Below, one piece after another: positions 12,592-24,767 of a DNA stretch of 54,321 nt (its first letter is position 1; every line of letters begins with the position of its first letter). This stretch comes from a virus. Location: UHGV virus genome UHGV-0135730. One strand, given 5' to 3'. A program made the position numbers and the translations under genes. Below the pieces are notes generated by a model. The model saw nothing but the letters and a program-made list of their open reading frames with translations. It ran no database searches and was not told where the DNA came from.

Positions 12592-12827
12592 TTGCCACCC
12601 TCCGCAATGAACTTATCAAGCCATTTGTTATTAGCCAGCCGTTCTTTGTCATTACCAAAACTGTTTCTGCTTAAAAGCTCCTGTTTTGTTAATTGCGGCC
12701 ACTTATCCGTCCACCCAGCCGACGTATCGAACTCATACAGACCGCCGTCAAAAGTAACAAAGTCATCAGCCGTGTCAGGCACTTCTTTATCAACTTCTTT
12801 TTCTTCGATCATGATTTGATACCTCAT
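12588..12827 (-). CDS. Hypothetical protein
   Basis: 79 aa ORF. Confidence 0.45.
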   Translation of the reverse strand: MRYQIMIEEKEVDKEVPDTADDFVTFDGGLYEFDTSAGWTDKWPQLTKQELLSRNSFGNDKERLANNKWLDKFIAEGGK

Positions 12828-13120
12828 TAATCGTTAATGACCTGGCCCATACGCCCGCGATATTTGCGCATACGTGGATCGACATATTCAGGCCAATGCA
12901 TATCCGGTTTTCTTTGCAGTGGGTAAAAACTTGCCTGCCAGTTGTCGAACCATATTTGCTTTGCGTACAGGTCACTAAATCTTTTCGCCATTCGTTCCGC
13001 TGCCGTGCCGCATAAAAAAAGCCCGCGATCGATTTGATCACGGGCTTCTCTTAAAACTTGCTCTTTTGTTCGCGGAATCGGTGGCGCATTAAGATAATGC
13101 GTGGATTCTGCTTTTTCCAT
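12827..13120 (-). CDS. Hypothetical protein
   Basis: Start at MEKAEST; downstream of SSB. Confidence 0.4.
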   Translation of the reverse strand: MEKAESTHYLNAPPIPRTKEQVLREARDQIDRGLFLCGTAAERMAKRFSDLYAKQIWFDNWQASFYPLQRKPDMHWPEYVDPRMRKYRGRMGQVIND

Positions 13121-13556
13121 ATTGTAACCCAATAGGAGCAAATGGAATATCGTCGTCGAGGTCCATCGGCGGCGCATTATTCCCGTTATTATTCTGCTGC
13201 TGCGGCGGCGCTTTCTGCTGCTGGCCTTGCTGCTGGCCTTGTTGGTTAACGTTCATGAATTCGAATTCGTTAACCGCCACTTCAACCGCCGTCCCCTTCG
13301 TGCCGTCGTTCCGGTCATATTGCCGAACATCCAGGCGACCGCTTACCACTATTTTTCCACCCTTACGAATATGTGGCGCTAATTTTTCCGCACGCTCGCC
13401 AAATACCAGGCAAGTGATCCACATTACCCGCTTATTATCGCCGTAGCCATTCGTTACAGCTAACGGAAAGCTACCAATAGCTTTACCGTTTTGCGTGTAG
13501 CGAACTTCCATATCATTTCCGATATTACCGCCCAGCATGATTGAATTTAAGCTCAT
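13089..13556 (-). CDS. ssb: Single-stranded DNA-binding protein
   Basis: OB-fold-like N-terminus, Gln/Gly-rich linker, C-terminal acidic tip DDDIPF. Confidence 0.85.
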   Translation of the reverse strand: MSLNSIMLGGNIGNDMEVRYTQNGKAIGSFPLAVTNGYGDNKRVMWITCLVFGERAEKLAPHIRKGGKIVVSGRLDVRQYDRNDGTKGTAVEVAVNEFEFMNVNQQGQQQGQQQKAPPQQQNNNGNNAPPMDLDDDIPFAPIGLQYGKSRIHALS

Positions 13557-14209
13557 TAACCGATCTCCCCGTTAAGCTCTTTTAAGCGAATATCATAAAC
13601 GTCTTTAGCTTTCTGTTGCTGCTCTGAATCTTTAGGAAGTAGCTTCCAGCACTTTCCGAAGATCTCGCGTAACTTGTTAGCGTCCGGCGCTTTCGCTGCC
13701 GCATCACAGAAACGCGCTAACACTTCATCAGGATTTGGCGGCGCTTTCTGCTGCTGTGGTTTCTGATTAGTTTGTTGTTTTGGTGGGTTTTTCTGTTGGC
13801 GAGGCTGCTGGCCTGTCTGCTTAGCGTATGCGTCAGTATCAGGATCTCGCGCATCGTCAATGCAGAACAATCCGTTCAACGCGTATTTACGCGCATAACT
13901 TGATGTCGCGCCAGTTAACTGGCTTGCGTCCATTCCCTTCTTGCTTTCTTCTTCCCTGGCGTAAGCAGTTACCGCAATTTCATCTTCGCCGTCGCTTAGT
14001 GTAGCCGTGGCTTTCACATAATAGCGATTGCCGATCAGGACGATTTCATCGCTAACAGTCAGCGTTATATTTTGAAGAAGTGGCTTAACCGCCTCCAAAA
14101 TATCCTCCGCCGACCTGTAATTGTACCCACCAAAATTATTACGCTGATTTTTCGGCGCGTTCAACGTTTGTTGAATCGTCCACAGCTTTTTGTGTAACTC
14201 TGTTTTCAC
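13556..14209 (-). CDS. erf: ERF-family single-strand annealing recombinase
   Basis: N-terminal FGGYNYRSAEDILEAVKPLL and TGATSSYARKYALNGLF typical of ERF; GTG start with AGGAG RBS. Confidence 0.75.
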   Translation of the reverse strand: MKTELHKKLWTIQQTLNAPKNQRNNFGGYNYRSAEDILEAVKPLLQNITLTVSDEIVLIGNRYYVKATATLSDGEDEIAVTAYAREEESKKGMDASQLTGATSSYARKYALNGLFCIDDARDPDTDAYAKQTGQQPRQQKNPPKQQTNQKPQQQKAPPNPDEVLARFCDAAAKAPDANKLREIFGKCWKLLPKDSEQQQKAKDVYDIRLKELNGEIG

Positions 14210-15995: not shown

Positions 15996-16103
15996 AAAAC
16001 AAATATCACGCAACGGCGGGATCTGTTGAGCGGTCAGTCACTGCTATCTAATGCTAATGGGATGCCCGCCCGCGCGTTCACTCTAACCATAGGAGAAAAG
16101 AAT

Positions 16104-16349
16104 ATGTATTACGTGCGCAAGGCTTTTGATATTCGCCTGAATAACAATGATCCGGCGCAAAAACTCATCTTAATTGCACTGGCAACAAAGGCCGGATGCA
16201 ACGGCAAAAGCGAAGTAACGCCAGAAGAGATCGCGGAAATGTGCGAAATTTCGTTACGCGATACTATCTCTGCACTGCATCAACTGAAAAGAAGCGGCCT
16301 AATCAGCCAGCTGCCAGGTTTCTTCTGTGTTTATCAGTTAATGTTTTAG
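16104..16349 (+). CDS. HTH protein, paralog of replication-initiator N-terminal domain (possible Cro/cII-like regulator)
   Basis: First rightward gene, AGGAGA RBS; LILIALATKAGCNGKSEVTPEEIAEMCEISLRDTISALHQLKRSGLI parallels N-terminus of 16356-17363 product. Confidence 0.55.
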   Translation: MYYVRKAFDIRLNNNDPAQKLILIALATKAGCNGKSEVTPEEIAEMCEISLRDTISALHQLKRSGLISQLPGFFCVYQLMF

Positions 16350-16355
16350 TTCGTC

Positions 16356-17363
16356 ATGAGGTTAATGCTTATGAGTATGCGGCTAATGGTAGAGGTCTTC
16401 CATACTGAGGTTGGCGACCCAATGCACAAACTGGTGCTGTTGAAGTTGGCTGATAACGCTAATGATAACGGCGAGTGTTACCCTTCTTACCATCACATAG
16501 CAAAGGAGTGTGAGATCAGCAAAAGAACAGCTATGAGGGCTGTAGACTCACTTTGTGAAAAAGGGTTGTTGATTAAACAACCAAGATATTTAATCGGAGG
16601 AAAAGAGCAAACTAGTAATTTCTATGTAATAGTCCTTCCGTCATTGCATGGTAGTGTCACTATGACACCGGGGGTAGTGACACAGAGTCACCAGGGTAGT
16701 GACACAGAGTCACCGGGGGTAGTGTCACAGAGTCACCCTAACCAGTCATATATAACCAGTAAAGAGAACATTAAAAACAATACACTCCGTGTATTGGAAA
16801 AAGACCGGTCTATCAGCGAAGAAGATCGGGAGGTTAATCTGGCGGCATTGCGTTGCCTGGCCTTCTACAACGACAAGGCAGGATGCAAATGTCGTGATGC
16901 AAAGCCATTCGTAGAACTACTGACAGAAACAAAAACACGTAAAGCGTATACGGAGGATGAAATCACATTAGTGATTGAGTGGGCTTTAACACAATGGCGT
17001 AGCCGTGGTGGAACACCTAAGCCTATAAACATTTGCCGGGTAACTAAATTTGATGGGTATCTGGCTGACGCTGAAAAATGGCACAAACTGTCAGCCACTG
17101 CAAACGCTGCCGACGTAGTGGAGGCATTTAACAGCACGTTTGATGGCCTGTTGCCACCTGCCGAACTGGATCGGGATCTTGAACGCAAGATTTATGCGTT
17201 CACTGACTACCTGAAAGACAAAAGCATCAACGGCTTTGTCGCCTACTTTGAAACGTTCAAAAACACGGCTTCAGATTTTTACTTCGGCAATGGCTTCACA
17301 GCGACACTTGATTTCCTGCTTAAACCAAAAACGCTACGTGATACACGATGTGGCGCTCTTTGA
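16356..17363 (+). CDS. Replication initiator (lambda O-like, winged-HTH N-terminus)
   Basis: HTH replication-protein-like N-terminus; iterons within coding sequence as in lambda O; start may be ATG 16371. Confidence 0.7.
   Translation: MRLMLMSMRLMVEVFHTEVGDPMHKLVLLKLADNANDNGECYPSYHHIAKECEISKRTAMRAVDSLCEKGLLIKQPRYLIGGKEQTSNFYVIVLPSLHGSVTMTPGVVTQSHQGSDTESPGVVSQSHPNQSYITSKENIKNNTLRVLEKDRSISEEDREVNLAALRCLAFYNDKAGCKCRDAKPFVELLTETKTRKAYTEDEITLVIEWALTQWRSRGGTPKPINICRVTKFDGYLADAEKWHKLSATANAADVVEAFNSTFDGLLPPAELDRDLERKIYAFTDYLKDKSINGFVAYFETFKNTASDFYFGNGFTATLDFLLKPKTLRDTRCGAL
16650..16737. repeat. Origin iterons (4 direct repeats, about 22-bp period) inside initiator gene
   Basis: GGTAGTGACACAGAGTCACC at 16673, 16695, 16718 plus degenerate copy at 16650; each contains GTGAC/GTCAC inverted half-sites; AT-rich stretch follows. 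Confidence 0.8.
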
Positions 17364-18474: not shown

Positions 18475-18507
18475 GTATACATTTTGTTAACTGGAGGGAT
18501 TAACATT

Positions 18508-19626
18508 ATGTCGCAAAGAAAAATCAGCGATGAGCAATTGATCGCTGAATACAACAACGGTTTAACGTACAAACAGATTGCTGAGAAGTACGGCATGTCT
18601 AAACGCAATGTCGAGCGCCTGGGCGCAAAACTGGCGAAACGTGGTTTATTATCAACACGCCGCGCGCCTGGTTTTGGCGTCAATGGCGAGTCGTTGCTAG
18701 TCGATAAAAACGGCAATGTGATCATGCGCTGGATTAAAACAGCCCGTGACCGCGACGAAATGGAACAGCTAATGGAAGCGGCCCGCGACGCTTTCACGGA
18801 TGAAATACCACGCGCGGAGGCTGTGCCAGTGCCTGAAATTGATTTTCAAAAAAGCCTGGCACTTTACCCGGTATTTGACCTGCATATCGGGGCGCTTGCT
18901 CATAAAGCTGAATGCGGAGAGAGCTACGATACTGGGATCGCTGAGCGCGTGTTGAATGACTTCTTTGACTACGCTGTTGGCGCTGCTCCGATGTCTGAAA
19001 AAGCAGTACTGCTCCTCGGTGGCGATCTACTTCATTCTGACGGTATGGTCCCGGTGACGCCAACAAGCGGGCACATTCTTGATCAAGATAGTCGCTACGC
19101 AAAACTTGTTTATGTGGCGATCCGGTCTGTCCGGCGGGCGGTAGGAAAGATGTTGTTAAATCATAAAGATGTTGAAATCCAGGTGTTATCAGGCAATCAC
19201 GATCAGTCGGGCATGATTTGGCTACGTGCGGCGCTGGCGGCTTTTTACGAAGATGAACCGCGCGTGACGGTTGATGTATCACCTGCTATTGTCCACCACA
19301 CACAGTACGGTAAAACATTCCTTGCATATCATCACGGTCATACTATCAAAAAACCTGAAAATTTGTTGTCTGCCTGCGTATCTGACTGGCGTGAGGATTT
19401 CGGCAAGTCGGCGGCTGTTTACGCTCACACTGGACATCTACATCACCAATCTGTTGTTGAAACATCATTGGGGATCGTTGAACACCACGGCACGTTAGCT
19501 GGCAAAGACGCATATTCGACTAATGGCGGCTGGCGGTCGCGGCGGCTGGCAGCGGTGATTATTTACAGCCCGGATCATGGGGAAATTGGGCGCTTTGTTT
19601 ATTACCCTGAATATTCCATTTTGTAA
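18508..19626 (+). CDS. HTH domain fused to calcineurin-like metallophosphoesterase
   Basis: N-terminal HTH (LTYKQIAEKYGMSKRNVERL); phosphoesterase motifs DLH, GGDLLH, GNHD, HHGH, GHLHH in canonical order. Confidence 0.6.
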   Translation: MSQRKISDEQLIAEYNNGLTYKQIAEKYGMSKRNVERLGAKLAKRGLLSTRRAPGFGVNGESLLVDKNGNVIMRWIKTARDRDEMEQLMEAARDAFTDEIPRAEAVPVPEIDFQKSLALYPVFDLHIGALAHKAECGESYDTGIAERVLNDFFDYAVGAAPMSEKAVLLLGGDLLHSDGMVPVTPTSGHILDQDSRYAKLVYVAIRSVRRAVGKMLLNHKDVEIQVLSGNHDQSGMIWLRAALAAFYEDEPRVTVDVSPAIVHHTQYGKTFLAYHHGHTIKKPENLLSACVSDWREDFGKSAAVYAHTGHLHHQSVVETSLGIVEHHGTLAGKDAYSTNGGWRSRRLAAVIIYSPDHGEIGRFVYYPEYSIL

Positions 19627-19644
19627 ACCGGAGGTAATGACATA

Positions 19645-21060
19645 ATGGTAACTGAGCAAATAAACTCACTACGGCAGGAACGTGAAGCGTCAGTTATCGG
19701 CGGGCTGCTGTTAGGTGGCCTCACTCCTAACGCGCAAGATGTTCTCGCCACTCTGGATCCTGAAGTGTTCACGATCTCGCTTTACAAACGTGCGTTTGAA
19801 GTTATCCGGGCGCAAGCCAGAAACAGGAATCTTATCGACGCGTTATTGGTTGGCGATGAGATTGGGAATGAAAACTTTGTTCCTCTGATGCAAACGGCGC
19901 GATCGTGTCCTTCTGCCGCCAACCTGAAGGGATACGCACAGCTACTACGTGAAGAGCACCAGCGGCGGCAGATGTTGGAACTCATCGACGATATGCGCTA
20001 CAAGCTGGAAACGGGGACGCTTGAAGTCGTCAAAGAGACGATGAAAGATTTTGATTCCCGGTACTCAAAATTAAAAGTAACTAAAGACAAGATCATTCCT
20101 GTTCTGTTGCGCGATGCGGTACAGGAATACACGGAGGTTTTAAGCAAGCGCATGGAATGCGGTGTCAATTCTGACAACATCAAAACAGGGATAGAACCAC
20201 TCGACGAAATGTTAGGCGGCATTAACGCTACTGATTTGGTGCTTCTCGCCGGACGTCCTGGGTCTGGTAAATCTGCGTTGGCGCTTGCAATTGCCCGCGA
20301 GGCTGCCGAACGCCCTTACCCTGGCGGCGAAGGTCAGCGGGTAGGCGTTTTGCTGTTTACGCTTGAAATGTCACTCGATCAGATGACTGAGCGGGCTATA
20401 GCTGGCGCTGGCAATTTATCAACTGACTGCCTGCGCAATCCGGTAAAACTTGATGATGAGGGGTGGGCGCATGTCGGCCAGGGTATGAGCGCACTTGCTA
20501 ATCTTGATGTGTGGATCGTTGACGCGTCGCAGTTAACGGTTGAGGAAATACGCGCAACAACGGAACGCATGAAGCAGGATCACCCGAACCTGGGTATGGT
20601 AATGATTGACTATATCGGGTTAATGAAGCTGGCTAAAGCCGAACGTCACGATCTCGCCGTGGGGCAATTATCGTGGTCGTTAAAGATGATGGCTAAAGAA
20701 TTGCGCGTACCAGTGTTGGCGCTGGCGCAATTGTCACGCCGAGTTGAGGAACGACCAAACAAGCGCCCTAATAATTCTGATCTTCGTGATTCTGGCAACC
20801 TTGAGCAAGATGCCGACAGGATAATCATGGTTTACCGCGATGGATATTACGACGAACAGTCTGTTGCCCGCGAATATATGGAAATCATTGTGTCAAAAAA
20901 CCGTCATGGTAAGTCTGGAACTGTTTACCAGCGGTTTGATGACAACGGTAATATCTTGCCATGCGACCAGGCGCGCGCAGCCGCAGCGTGCATTCAGTCA
21001 ATGAATCATCGCACAAGCCGTTTTAACCAACGAAACAATCAGAATAACGCATCTTTTTAA
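19645..21060 (+). CDS. DnaB-family replicative helicase
   Basis: Walker A GRPGSGKS, RecA-like C-terminal domain; 471 aa. Confidence 0.85.
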   Translation: MVTEQINSLRQEREASVIGGLLLGGLTPNAQDVLATLDPEVFTISLYKRAFEVIRAQARNRNLIDALLVGDEIGNENFVPLMQTARSCPSAANLKGYAQLLREEHQRRQMLELIDDMRYKLETGTLEVVKETMKDFDSRYSKLKVTKDKIIPVLLRDAVQEYTEVLSKRMECGVNSDNIKTGIEPLDEMLGGINATDLVLLAGRPGSGKSALALAIAREAAERPYPGGEGQRVGVLLFTLEMSLDQMTERAIAGAGNLSTDCLRNPVKLDDEGWAHVGQGMSALANLDVWIVDASQLTVEEIRATTERMKQDHPNLGMVMIDYIGLMKLAKAERHDLAVGQLSWSLKMMAKELRVPVLALAQLSRRVEERPNKRPNNSDLRDSGNLEQDADRIIMVYRDGYYDEQSVAREYMEIIVSKNRHGKSGTVYQRFDDNGNILPCDQARAAAACIQSMNHRTSRFNQRNNQNNASF

Positions 21061-23383: not shown

Positions 23384-23613
23384 TGGATAAAACGGCAACA
23401 ATTCTTCTTAGTCGCCCTGCCATCTGCCGTATGCTTGGGGGAATTAGCAGGGGAACGTTCTATTCATGGCGTAAAAAGTGGGAGGAAAACGGAACTCCAT
23501 TCCCGGACCCTGTTGATGTGTTGGGGACCGGGAGGGGCGTCATGTACCGCTATCAGGATGTAATGCGGTTCTTTGATAAGATCGGATTAACGCCAGCCAG
23601 GGATAAGACGTAA
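23383..23613 (+). CDS. AlpA-family DNA-binding protein / excisionase candidate
   Basis: Short HTH protein (ICRMLGGISRGTFYSWRKK) adjacent to integrase; 3' end overlaps int 3' end convergently. Confidence 0.6.
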   Translation: MDKTATILLSRPAICRMLGGISRGTFYSWRKKWEENGTPFPDPVDVLGTGRGVMYRYQDVMRFFDKIGLTPARDKT

Positions 23614-24767
23614 TCCGCAAATTTATTTAACGCCTCCTTTTGTTCATCAAGATAATCATATTTGTCGTACACTGCCAGTATTCCTCTGAGTGAATGGCCT
23701 AATACCTTTTCCGCGATATGTACCGGAACACCTATAGCTGAAAGGTGTGTACGGCACGTCCTGCGGAGGTCGTGACAGGACCATGATTTGCCTCCCATCC
23801 TTTTACGCACGAAGATTGCAGCTACTTTTATCACTGATGCGTTTACTGGCTTGTTGCCGCCGTTAATCACTGGCGGGAACACATAATCATACTCATGGGA
23901 GGCTAATACCTCCCTGAGCATTTTTATCGACAAATCTGATAATCCCCGCCTGATTTCACTTCTTGTCTTCGCCACTGCCGCCGGGACGGTCCATACCCCG
24001 TTATCCAGGTCGAGGTGTTCCCTTCTCATTTTCTGCAACTCCCCCACCCTGCACCCAGTTAGCAATAATAGCCTTAATGCTATCTTGTTTTGACGGTAGA
24101 TCTGCGAATCATCCACCGTTCGCCAGAAATGGCCTATTTCATCGCATGATAAATAACGCTCGCCAACCGCATAATTTTCGCCTACGTCAACAACCCTGAT
24201 ATTGTTTATCGCTGTACTGGTCATTAGCCCGCGCCGGATAGCGCTGTTTACAACAATCTTCATTCGCTTAAGTATCAGCCCAGCCGTAACCGCGTGGCCC
24301 GCCGCAGTGATCTCGCCAAATATATCCATCCATTGCTTCGTGCTGACATCATCGGCAATATACTCACCGAATTTATCGACAACGTGGCGCTTAAGCGCGC
24401 TCCTGACGTCATTATATGCAACCAGCTTAATAACGTTCGGCAGGGATAAATAGTCACTCACAATGGCGCTTATTGTTAATTTGCCACGCTCAATATTTAT
24501 CGCTTGCTTTACTGAAACAGTCGGGTTCTTCCCCTTCGCTAATAGCTCTTTGTATTCTGCCACCGCGTAGCGTGCATCTTTCAATGTCATGTTGCCATAA
24601 TCGCCAATCTTCATCCTTACAGGTTTACCGTTGAACCTGTACCTGAACTGGAAAATGATTTTCCCCTTCGGGCTTATCCTGGCAGACAAGCCATCGCGAT
24701 CCGCTATCTCGTTCGGGCCGTCATATGGCTTGTTTGCTATTGCGCGTAATTTCGTATCCGTCAGCAT
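23553..24767 (-). CDS. int: Tyrosine integrase (P4-like)
   Basis: N-terminal arm-binding-like domain, C-terminal catalytic region with HDLRRT...HxxxH...Y. Confidence 0.85.
   Translation of the reverse strand: MLTDTKLRAIANKPYDGPNEIADRDGLSARISPKGKIIFQFRYRFNGKPVRMKIGDYGNMTLKDARYAVAEYKELLAKGKNPTVSVKQAINIERGKLTISAIVSDYLSLPNVIKLVAYNDVRSALKRHVVDKFGEYIADDVSTKQWMDIFGEITAAGHAVTAGLILKRMKIVVNSAIRRGLMTSTAINNIRVVDVGENYAVGERYLSCDEIGHFWRTVDDSQIYRQNKIALRLLLLTGCRVGELQKMRREHLDLDNGVWTVPAAVAKTRSEIRRGLSDLSIKMLREVLASHEYDYVFPPVINGGNKPVNASVIKVAAIFVRKRMGGKSWSCHDLRRTCRTHLSAIGVPVHIAEKVLGHSLRGILAVYDKYDYLDEQKEALNKFADYVLSLAGVNPILSKNRITS

Follow-up and report, generated by a model that had tools for sequence, protein, structure and literature searches.

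A 372-amino-acid (aa) protein that joins an N-terminal helix-turn-helix (HTH) to a calcineurin-like metallophosphoesterase (MPE) domain is a new member of a very large, already catalogued and uncharacterised phage family, PHROG 704, and most likely acts as a DNA-cutting enzyme. Its gene lies in a 54,321-nucleotide stretch of viral DNA (the window), a temperate coliphage of the mEp021/mEpimmI group, and had been noticed by a previous reading of the letters alone (the sequence-only reading); a GGAGG ribosome-binding site precedes its ATG, and we confirm it as a real gene. The protein matches the PHROG 704 profile, named 'DNA repair exonuclease', over its full length (E 5e-142; aa 4–368 on profile positions 2–387 of 390), with a further match to PHROG 284 'exonuclease' (E 7e-17). 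It is 96% identical to mEp013 gp11 and has a 56% identical orthologue, Bas01_0050, in phage Bas1 (E 1e-154). The coordinates of all features are collected in Table 1.

Table 1. Features of the HTH–MPE gene and the adjoining helicase gene (window coordinates)
Feature	Position	Strand	Evidence or conservation
HTH-linker-metallophosphoesterase CDS, 372 aa	18508..19626	+	ORF; PHROG 704 member
N-terminal helix-turn-helix, aa 8-44, three helices H8-16, H21-28, H32-44	18529..18639	+	secondary structure; weak Pfam HTH matches
Family-specific linker: beta-hairpin aa 60-77, long helix aa 79-99	18679..18804	+	secondary structure
Metallophosphoesterase catalytic domain, calcineurin-like, Mre11/SbcD-type, aa 115-366	18850..19605	+	
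Motif I, D124-L-H126, metal ligands	18877..18885	+	D in 149/150, H in 150/150 representatives
Motif II, G172-D-L-L-H176, Mre11-type GDxxH	19021..19035	+	D173 in 150/150, H176 in 146/150
Family-specific conserved loop after motif II, aa 177-197 (S-D-G-x-x-P-V-T-P-x-S-G-H-x-L-D-x-D-x-R-Y)	19036..19098	+	
Motif III, G229-N-H-D232	19192..19203	+	N230 and H231 each in 149/150
Motif IV, H275-H276-G-H278	19330..19341	+	H276 in 149/150
Motif V, G309-H310-L-H312-H313	19432..19446	+	H310 in 142/150, H312 in 148/150
DnaB-like replicative helicase, downstream	19645..21060	+	PHROG 19, E 1e-108

The sequence-only reading had described an N-terminal HTH together with a full set of MPE motifs, and the motifs, the fold and the HTH helices bear out both parts of this description. 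The ordered set DxH / GDxx(D/H) / GNH(D/E) / H / GHxH is complete (aa 124–126, 172–176, 229–232, 276 and 309–312), and the domain shows the four-layer alpha/beta sandwich fold of the MPE superfamily. The motifs do not vary among near or remote relatives, their residues being kept in 142–150 of 150 family representatives clustered at 50% identity, and the description thus withstands the comparison with homologues on which it had been staked.

Using separate profile HMMs for the modules, the HTH was detectable in 123 of the representatives and the linker in 142, while the MPE domain could be found in all 150. The HTH part (aa 1–55) is strongly basic (pI 10.3) and gives weak Pfam matches to Rrf2, Sigma70_r4_2, IclR, MarR and other HTH models, and it is the module least conserved in sequence, whereas the catalytic residues are invariant; the MPE domain is slightly acidic (pI 6.3). 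Within the linker, W75 is near-invariant (142/150). Judged from the representatives' sequences, the HTH–linker–MPE layout is ancestral to the family. Two further family-specific conserved loops are present, at aa 177–197 and at aa 330–346. The former, in which T184, L191, D192 and R196 are kept in 144–148 of the 150 representatives, is the lowest-confidence part of both structure models and is probably part of the substrate site.

Searches with Pfam and NCBIfam returned weak HTH matches only and no named relative for the 372-aa protein. The Pfam Metallophos models (PF00149/PF12850) did not match it even at E up to 1, a miss that we attribute to the family being too divergent for the Pfam model; PF00149 was matched by 10 of 24 relatives (best E 7e-6). 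No significant hit to PDB sequences was obtained with either the single protein or the family profile; among MPE proteins T. maritima SbcD/Mre11 came closest, as a weak match of the profile (E 0.4) in which GDLLH is aligned with GDLLHS. The PADLOC defence profiles yielded no match at E up to 1. A fold search of BFVD yielded further phage relatives without names and nothing else. Among known structures, the neighbours of the protein are SbcD, Mre11 and DP1, and profile and structure comparison, which had been suggested as a way to place the protein, probably puts it nearer to the Mre11/SbcD-like enzymes than to the class III cyclic-nucleotide phosphodiesterases (CpdA / Rv0805 / GpdQ); it does not have the GDxVDRG and GNHE motifs of the PPP-type Ser/Thr phosphatases, to which lambda phosphatase NinI belongs, and PPP enzymes are not its closest fold neighbours.

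Although it has the GDxxH form of motif II that is typical of Mre11/SbcD, the protein is not a member of that family. It is only 15–18% identical to Mre11/SbcD and lacks their C-terminal capping domain, and it carries an extra N-terminal HTH, the hairpin-helix linker and the two family-specific loops. Moreover, Mre11 and SbcD pair with Rad50 and SbcC, whereas no Rad50/SbcC-type SMC ATPase gene was found beside the HTH–MPE gene or in the orthologue loci inspected. Identity to the archaeal PolD small subunit DP1 and the eukaryotic polymerase B-subunits is 8–13%, and the phage protein has no OB fold and no encoded polymerase partner.

The sequence-only reading had overlooked that this family is very common and already catalogued in phages. 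PHROG 704 is also annotated 'putative phosphoesterase', and its members include Bas01_0050, PKP126 gp10, EP23 p56 and mEp013 gp11; they have the architecture and the invariant residues of the window protein in common with it, the sole difference being genomic position. In Drexlerviridae the gene belongs to the core set, with 508 of 522 genomes carrying it, and it directly precedes the lysis cassette (PMC13164509). Further members come from Jerseyvirus, Dhillonvirus, Webervirus and numerous phages and prophages of Vibrio and marine origin, as well as from N4-like phages with their own RNA polymerases. The mEp021-group paper makes no mention of the gene.

In the window, the gene is accompanied by genes for Ant, DnaB, a MarR-like protein and NinB, with an O-like initiator (335 aa) encoded upstream. 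The DnaB-like gene starts 18 nt past the HTH–MPE stop codon, and the G+C contents of the two genes (0.499 for HTH–MPE, 0.500 for DnaB-like) stand above the value of about 0.45 in the flanks; given the short gap and the common raised G+C, the two look like a co-transcribed block. This gene pair is also present in relatives. In annotated phage records and the contigs encoding the orthologues, adjacency to DnaB proved to be confined to the mEp021/mEpimmI group, and most orthologues belong to phages that have no DnaB and do not lie beside any helicase. Elsewhere they adjoin lysis cassettes, terminase genes, tail genes, or a 3'-phosphatase and dNMP kinase pair. In many lineages the gene directly precedes or follows the lysis cassette or stands just before the terminase genes, and in three unrelated lineages it lies directly upstream of a HAD-type 3'-phosphatase/nucleotidase and a dNMP kinase (see also PMC13164509). 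Thermus phage Lalka8 additionally has an RNA ligase beside the family gene. All contexts inspected had genes of DNA or nucleotide metabolism nearby or were at operon ends.

The phenotype of the Bas1 orthologue bears directly on function. Expression of Bas01_0050 is toxic in E. coli, the gene is dispensable for plaque formation, and missense or frameshift mutations in it allow phage Bas1 to escape the DRT7 defence, which phage lambda escapes through loss of Gam (bioRxiv 10.64898/2026.02.16.706125). Two other phage MPE proteins are toxic as well. T5 A1 is necessary and sufficient for degradation of the host chromosome (bioRxiv 10.64898/2026.04.02.716235), and for Gp48 of the cluster A mycobacteriophage A10ZJ24, which has phosphodiesterase activity, toxicity goes together with damage to the genomic DNA of the host, although a permissive host does not require the protein for infection (PMC12287305). 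Both are precedents for phage MPE proteins that drive host DNA degradation and thereby count in favor of a nuclease, although motif I of Gp48 starts from residue 10, leaving no N-terminal HTH or linker of the kind seen here.

The likeness to T5 A1 extends to the motif order, including HGH and TGHxH, and to a similar C-terminal D-x-(G)Y...W...ITY stretch. Moreover, T5 A1 is partnered by a distinct DNA-binding protein, A2, where the window protein has a fused HTH, and it adjoins dmp or a PNK-type gene, comparable to the HAD phosphatase and dNMP kinase found next to PHROG 704 relatives. On the other hand, T5 A1 has an extra N-terminal domain of ~290 aa and is essential, unlike the Bas1 orthologue. 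We examined homology to T5 A1 beyond the superfamily level by eye, by PHROG cross-matching and by profile–profile comparison. No HMM cross-match between PHROG 1745, which holds T5 A1, and PHROG 704 was obtained, and hhalign against a 7-sequence A1 alignment gave P 0.0017–0.004 and a probability of 8–15%, covering motifs III–V and the C-terminus only; T5 A1 is kept here as an analogy only.

Taken together, these results lead us to favor, with slightly better than even confidence, a model in which the protein would be a DNA-tethered, Rad50-independent nuclease acting on host or replicating DNA. The sequence-only reading had offered three functions, namely an unconventional replication factor, a nuclease and a phosphodiesterase of signalling nucleotides; the nuclease is favored by the SbcD, Mre11 and DP1 neighbours, the Mre11-type motif II, the PHROG name and the toxic Bas1 orthologue, while the replication factor or loader is not upheld. 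According to this model, the protein would be a phosphodiesterase with a working binuclear metal site, placed within the calcineurin-like superfamily on the Mre11/SbcD/DP1 (nuclease) branch and joined to a basic HTH via the conserved hairpin-helix linker. The HTH, perhaps with the linker, may keep the enzyme on DNA and would in this way do for it what the capping domain and Rad50/SbcC do for Mre11/SbcD, and the MPE domain would cleave phosphodiester bonds of a putative DNA substrate, at ends or within strands. Transcription from the early rightward operon along with the initiator and DnaB would have it act while the phage grows lytically, either on the host chromosome or on intermediates of replication and recombination, where it could supply nucleotide salvage or remodel DNA ends.

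Several points speak against this model. The protein has neither a capping domain nor a Rad50/SbcC partner, its MPE domain is slightly acidic, and homology to T5 A1 could not be shown beyond the superfamily. For a temperate phage, early expression of a nuclease that cuts host DNA without discrimination would be at odds with the establishment of lysogeny, so that any such activity must be weak or kept in check here. The phage also encodes Erf, SSB and a homologue of the anti-RecBCD protein Abc2, so that another recombination nuclease is not obviously needed. A role as the exonuclease partner of Erf or as an anti-RecBCD factor, which we considered separately, is weakened by the Abc2 homologue and by the separate RecE/DUF3799-type exonuclease of T1-like and ST44-like phages.

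A bolder extension of the nuclease model, drawn by analogy and in our view rather unlikely to hold as a whole, is that PHROG 704 might represent a single-chain, streamlined counterpart of T5 A1/A2. Such a pan-phage, Rad50-independent and DNA-tethered nuclease would attack the host chromosome and feed dNMP salvage, its action on host DNA metabolism would be sensed by DRT7-like defences, and temperate phages would have domesticated it beside DnaB with its activity restrained.

The phosphodiesterase of signalling nucleotides fares less well. Such an anti-defence enzyme would degrade the signals of CBASS, Pycsar, Thoeris or type III CRISPR systems, with the HTH as a fused Aca-like autoregulator. 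Nuclease-type MPEs score higher, however, and motif II is of the Mre11 GDxxH type; loss of the orthologue leads to escape from a defence rather than to sensitisation, and the orthologue is toxic alone, a property one would not predict for an enzyme that breaks down signals. Autoregulation by the HTH was assessed from the regions upstream of five orthologues, which revealed no consistent operator-like inverted repeat, and the near-universal presence in Drexlerviridae would suit a housekeeping gene better than an accessory one. We therefore regard this explanation as quite improbable.

The recurrent PNKP-type HAD 3'-phosphatase and dNMP kinase neighbours, together with the RNA ligase of Lalka8, point to another possible role, that of a nucleic-acid end-healing phosphoesterase (2',3'-cyclic phosphodiesterase or 3'-phosphatase, as in the bacterial Pnkp MPE) repairing tRNA or DNA ends damaged by toxins or defences. 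End-healing chemistry is performed by MPE domains in Clostridium thermocellum Pnkp and in lambda phosphatase. In the window, however, none of the ORFs profiled encodes a HAD 3'-phosphatase, dNMP kinase or RNA ligase partner, and where the adjacent 'PNK' does occur it is itself the 3'-phosphatase domain, making the MPE redundant for that step. Toxicity would be unexpected for a repair enzyme and the HTH suggests duplex DNA, leaving end healing very unlikely.

A further reading takes the protein to be first and foremost a regulator of transcription, directed for example at late or lysis genes or at host RNA polymerase, in which the MPE domain would serve as a sensor or modifier. This would be in line with the conserved HTH and its weak sigma-70 region 4 matches, with the position near the lysis cassette or terminase in many lineages, which recalls lambda Q, and with the reported binding of T5 A1 to RNA polymerase (bioRxiv 10.64898/2026.04.02.716235). 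Against this stand the members in N4-like phages that have RNA polymerases of their own, the dispensability of the Bas1 orthologue, and a pattern of conservation in which the HTH varies most and the catalytic residues not at all. For the mEp021 group, a late-gene regulator was rejected, since the related phage MagusPhagus carries a Q-like antiterminator on its other arm, and we hold the regulator to be a distant prospect in general.

Finally, the position before DnaB had been taken to suggest an accessory factor or unconventional loader for that helicase, which is equally hard to credit: no AAA+, lambda-P or DnaD-like domain was found with Pfam, NCBIfam or PHROGs, an O-like initiator is already encoded upstream, phages with their own DnaB, such as P22, are not known to need a loader, the pairing with DnaB does not extend beyond a single phage group, frameshifts are tolerated in the Bas1 orthologue, which is thus not essential for replication, and an invariant active site favors catalysis over scaffolding.

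Overall, for the window itself these results mostly mean a correct annotation, the gene not being a new kind of helicase loader. The wider interest lies with the family, which is among the commonest uncharacterised enzymes of tailed phages and whose Bas1 member is both toxic to E. coli and a determinant of sensitivity to the DRT7 reverse-transcriptase defence. Knowledge of the substrate would reveal how PHROG 704 phages handle host DNA and what DRT7 senses, and would tell whether phages used in therapy bring with them a nuclease for the host genome.

The gene for the helix-turn-helix–metallophosphoesterase protein (HTH-MPE) starts at an ATG preceded at 8 nt by a GGAGG ribosome-binding site, and no ribosome-binding site was found for the TTG upstream of it. 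All five metallophosphoesterase (MPE) motif strings quoted in the sequence-only reading were recovered (5/5) in the predicted protein, and the antirepressor and DnaB flanks were as that reading had stated. The DnaB-like helicase gene begins 18 nt past the HTH-MPE stop codon and carries its own GGAGG.

Features of the window (nt) and of the HTH-MPE protein (aa)
Feature	Position	Strand	Remark
Abc2 anti-RecBCD homologue	12827-13177	-	PHROG 656, E 1.8e-30
SSB gene	13089-13556	-	
Erf gene	13556-14209	-	
Small HTH ORF	16026-16349	+	just before O-like initiator
O-like initiator	16356-17363	+	335 aa
Ant-type antirepressor (Ant/KilAC)	about 17671/17731-18474	+	upstream flank of HTH-MPE
HTH-MPE, open frame	18484-19626	+	ATG at 18508, 372 aa
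DnaB-like helicase	19645-21060	+	downstream flank of HTH-MPE
Integrase	23553-24767	-	
Tail-fibre and tail genes	from 25104 on	-	
Three-helix HTH	aa 8-44		AlphaFold2 models
Beta-hairpin	aa 60-77		AlphaFold2 models
Long helix	aa 79-99		AlphaFold2 models
Alpha/beta sandwich	~aa 115-366		AlphaFold2 models
DLH	aa 124-126		motif
GDLLH	aa 172-176		motif
GNHD	aa 229-232		motif
HHGH	aa 275-278		motif
GHLHH	aa 309-313		motif

Against PHROGs, the protein matched PHROG 704, 'DNA repair exonuclease', over its full length (E 5e-142), with PHROG 284 'exonuclease' as a weaker second match. Pfam yielded only weak HTH matches (aa 10-60) and no Metallophos match, and NCBIfam nothing informative. Two AlphaFold2 models (22 sequences, pLDDT 75; 62 sequences, pLDDT 84.7) define the domain layout, in which the HTH part is strongly basic (computed pI 10.3 versus 6.3 for the catalytic part). 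Among 24 diverse family members, 10 matched Pfam Metallophos, and the N-termini matched assorted HTH models.

The protein was found by tblastn in 2,042/50,697 phage records, including Drexlerviridae (T1-like, with Webervirus), Jerseyvirus, Dhillonvirus, N4-like Vibrio, marine and Thermus phages, and a profile search of 1.84 billion representative proteins returned 5,508 clusters at E<=1e-3 and 1,391 at E<=1e-30. The sequence-only reading had named non-conserved motif residues as evidence against its assignment; the motif residues D124, H126, G172/D173, H176, N230/H231, H276, G309/H310 and H312 are instead invariant down to 31% identity, as are the family-specific W75, T184, L191, R252 and G299, and the metal ligands are retained in 142-150 among the 150 best representatives. 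In the same 150, the MPE domain was detected in 150, the linker (beta-hairpin and long helix) in 142 and the HTH in 123, with at least 100 residues preceding the MPE domain in 145. The retention of modules and metal ligands across representatives therefore indicates that the fusion is ancestral in this family of presumably active enzymes. One metagenomic relative (P0112) is a chimera, whose first ~105 residues (HTH and linker) are near-identical to those of the window's group and whose MPE domain is much more diverged, implying recombination at the module boundary.

In structural comparison, the highest scores were obtained with SbcD (7dog_B) and T. maritima Mre11 (3qg5_C, 18% identity), both 14.5, followed by the MJ0936 phosphodiesterase (14.1), the PolD DP1 proofreading exonuclease (13.9), the Pol delta B-subunit (13.4), other Mre11 structures (12.3-13.3), LpxH (12.9), Rv0805 (12.5) and the Ser/Thr phosphatase PP5 (9.2); AlphaFold2 model 1 gave the identical protein set in slightly changed order. 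Searching PDB sequences with the family profile, the best MPE match was again T. maritima Mre11/SbcD, albeit weak (E 0.4), its GDLLHS aligning with the family GD(F/L)LH. A histidine in motif II is an Mre11 signature. Of the placements proposed in the sequence-only reading, the modelled MPE domain thus lies nearest the Mre11/SbcD nuclease branch and clearly departs from PPP phosphatases, whereas its separation from small-molecule phosphodiesterases is not clean. Unlike Mre11/SbcD, HTH-MPE has neither a capping domain nor a Rad50/SbcC partner, and it therefore stands outside that family.

A full-length orthologue, Bas01_0050 (56% identical, E 1e-154), is encoded by phage Bas1 (AugustePiccard, MZ501051). 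In Bas1, escape from the reverse-transcriptase defence system DRT7/UG10 is reported to come with missense or frameshift changes to Bas01_0050; lambda escapers of DRT7 have lost the RecBCD inhibitor Gam, and Bas01_0050 alone is toxic in E. coli, making co-expression with DRT7 impossible (bioRxiv 10.64898/2026.02.16.706125). Given these escape mutations and this toxicity, Bas01_0050 is unneeded for laboratory plaque formation, harmful to the cell and linked, by its activity or presence, to the DNA-metabolism state sensed by DRT7.

Precedents exist in two further phage MPE proteins. The mycobacteriophage phosphodiesterase Gp48 damages host DNA (PMC12287305), and T5 A1, whose partner is the DNA-binding protein A2, is both required and sufficient to degrade the host chromosome (bioRxiv 10.64898/2026.04.02.716235). 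T5 A1 has its motifs arranged as in HTH-MPE and resembles it in a C-terminal stretch, and T5 A1 homologues adjoin dmp or PNK-type genes; homology beyond the superfamily was not demonstrated (no PHROG cross-match, hhalign probability 8-15%). Homologues of T5 A1 (locus L013 1706-3376) extend beyond Demerecviridae: tblastn detected them in 1,135 phage records, among them a T7-like phage of Agrobacterium, giant phages of Caulobacter and phages of Flavobacterium, and a Vibrio copy is annotated 'homeodomain-like'.

The neighbourhoods of HTH-MPE vary widely. In Webervirus PKP126 it ends the DNA-metabolism operon, and the genes after it encode a HAD 3'-phosphatase and a dNMP kinase, with the lysis cassette next; an 'exonuclease-holin-endolysin-spanin' module has been described in 508/522 Drexlerviridae genomes (PMC13164509). 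The phosphatase and dNMP kinase also follow in Yersinia vB_YenM_39, and in Thermus Lalka8 a nucleotidase, dNMP kinase and RNA ligase. In these downstream genes (L002 6166-6654, Webervirus; L008 5223-5681, Yersinia phage; L010 4908-6339, Thermus phage), the phosphatase is a stand-alone PNKP-type enzyme annotated 'polynucleotide kinase' and the nucleotidase is of NT5C type. HTH-MPE, phosphatase/nucleotidase and dNMP kinase look like a conserved three-gene nucleotide-processing cassette, and its recurrence in three lineages unrelated to one another suggests that DNA is broken down and its nucleotides salvaged. Elsewhere, HTH-MPE lies past the lysis genes at the genome end (Dhillonvirus EP23), alone and in opposite orientation within tail genes (Jerseyvirus LP31), ahead of terminase genes (PEAT2 and JD001), in the early region (N4-like Vibrio phage), after the lysis cassette near the integrase (Sulfitobacter pCB2047-A and a metagenomic temperate phage) or among primase, SF2 helicase, DUF3799 exonuclease and Erf (Salmonella phage ST44, 74% identical).

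The window belongs to the mEp021/mEpimmI group of temperate coliphages, its early region being ~90% identical to mEp554, mEp515, mEp021 and mEp013. The mEp013 orthologue of HTH-MPE (96% identical) is annotated 'hypothetical', and the gene goes unmentioned in the published description of the group. Gene order is small HTH ORF, O-like initiator, Ant, HTH-MPE, DnaB, MarR-like gene and NinB. In each of the first two, matches to PHROG 4617/270 cover the N-terminal winged helix of replication initiators; phage MagusPhagus has the pair as well. The raised G+C common to HTH-MPE (0.499) and DnaB (0.500), compared to 0.44-0.46 in the initiator, Ant, MarR-like and NinB genes, suggests that both (18508-21060) came in as a single mosaic block; the pair occurs in all relatives of the mEp021 group and in 35/5,426 complete E. 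coli genomes. The slot between initiator and HTH-MPE is a swap site: the window has Ant/KilAC there, E. coli prophages have BRO, Rha or a zinc-ribbon protein, and MagusPhagus has no gene at all. A P22-style Erf/Abc2 recombination module is also present, the Abc2 homologue directly downstream of SSB and Erf. The integrase gene lies where the rightward early operon ends, directly followed by the tail-fibre and tail genes. At 54,321 nt (53-55 kb for mEp021-group genomes), the window probably spans a single whole phage genome or prophage in circularly permuted form; a scan of it for tRNA genes gave none.

Taken together, HTH-MPE is an Mre11/SbcD-like MPE with an intact active site and a permanently fused, basic HTH, and its family is toxic to the host. 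In our view the protein is very probably a working MPE enzyme from PHROG 704, and we lean, by a modest degree, towards DNA as its substrate. The HTH would serve as a DNA tether in place of the Rad50 partner and capping domain, and the MPE domain would cut the DNA, so as to degrade or process host or replicating DNA during lytic growth; the products may be recycled where 3'-phosphatase and dNMP kinase genes come next. Because a repressor controls the early rightward operon, HTH-MPE would be silent in lysogens of the window phage, and its activity is probably limited in rate or specificity, since an unrestrained host-DNA nuclease would clash with establishing lysogeny. A role as recombination exonuclease or RecBCD antagonist is unlikely here, given that Erf, SSB and an Abc2 homologue are available to the phage already.

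A signalling-nucleotide phosphodiesterase with an Aca-like HTH is an improbable reading; upstream of orthologues our search found no consistent operator-like repeats. PADLOC gave no match for HTH-MPE. An end-healing phosphoesterase is slightly less probable still. A replication accessory factor or helicase loader, as the slot before DnaB had suggested to the first reading, is very improbable, given the lack of a loader-type domain, the upstream initiator, the frameshifts tolerated by the Bas1 orthologue and the differing neighbourhoods; a transcription regulator is just as doubtful.

Overall, HTH-MPE belongs to a large, already catalogued family, only its position beside DnaB, in a temperate phage, sets the window copy apart, and the finding specific to the window is ordinary. 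The family itself, being ubiquitous, toxic and linked to DRT7, is a worthwhile experimental target.
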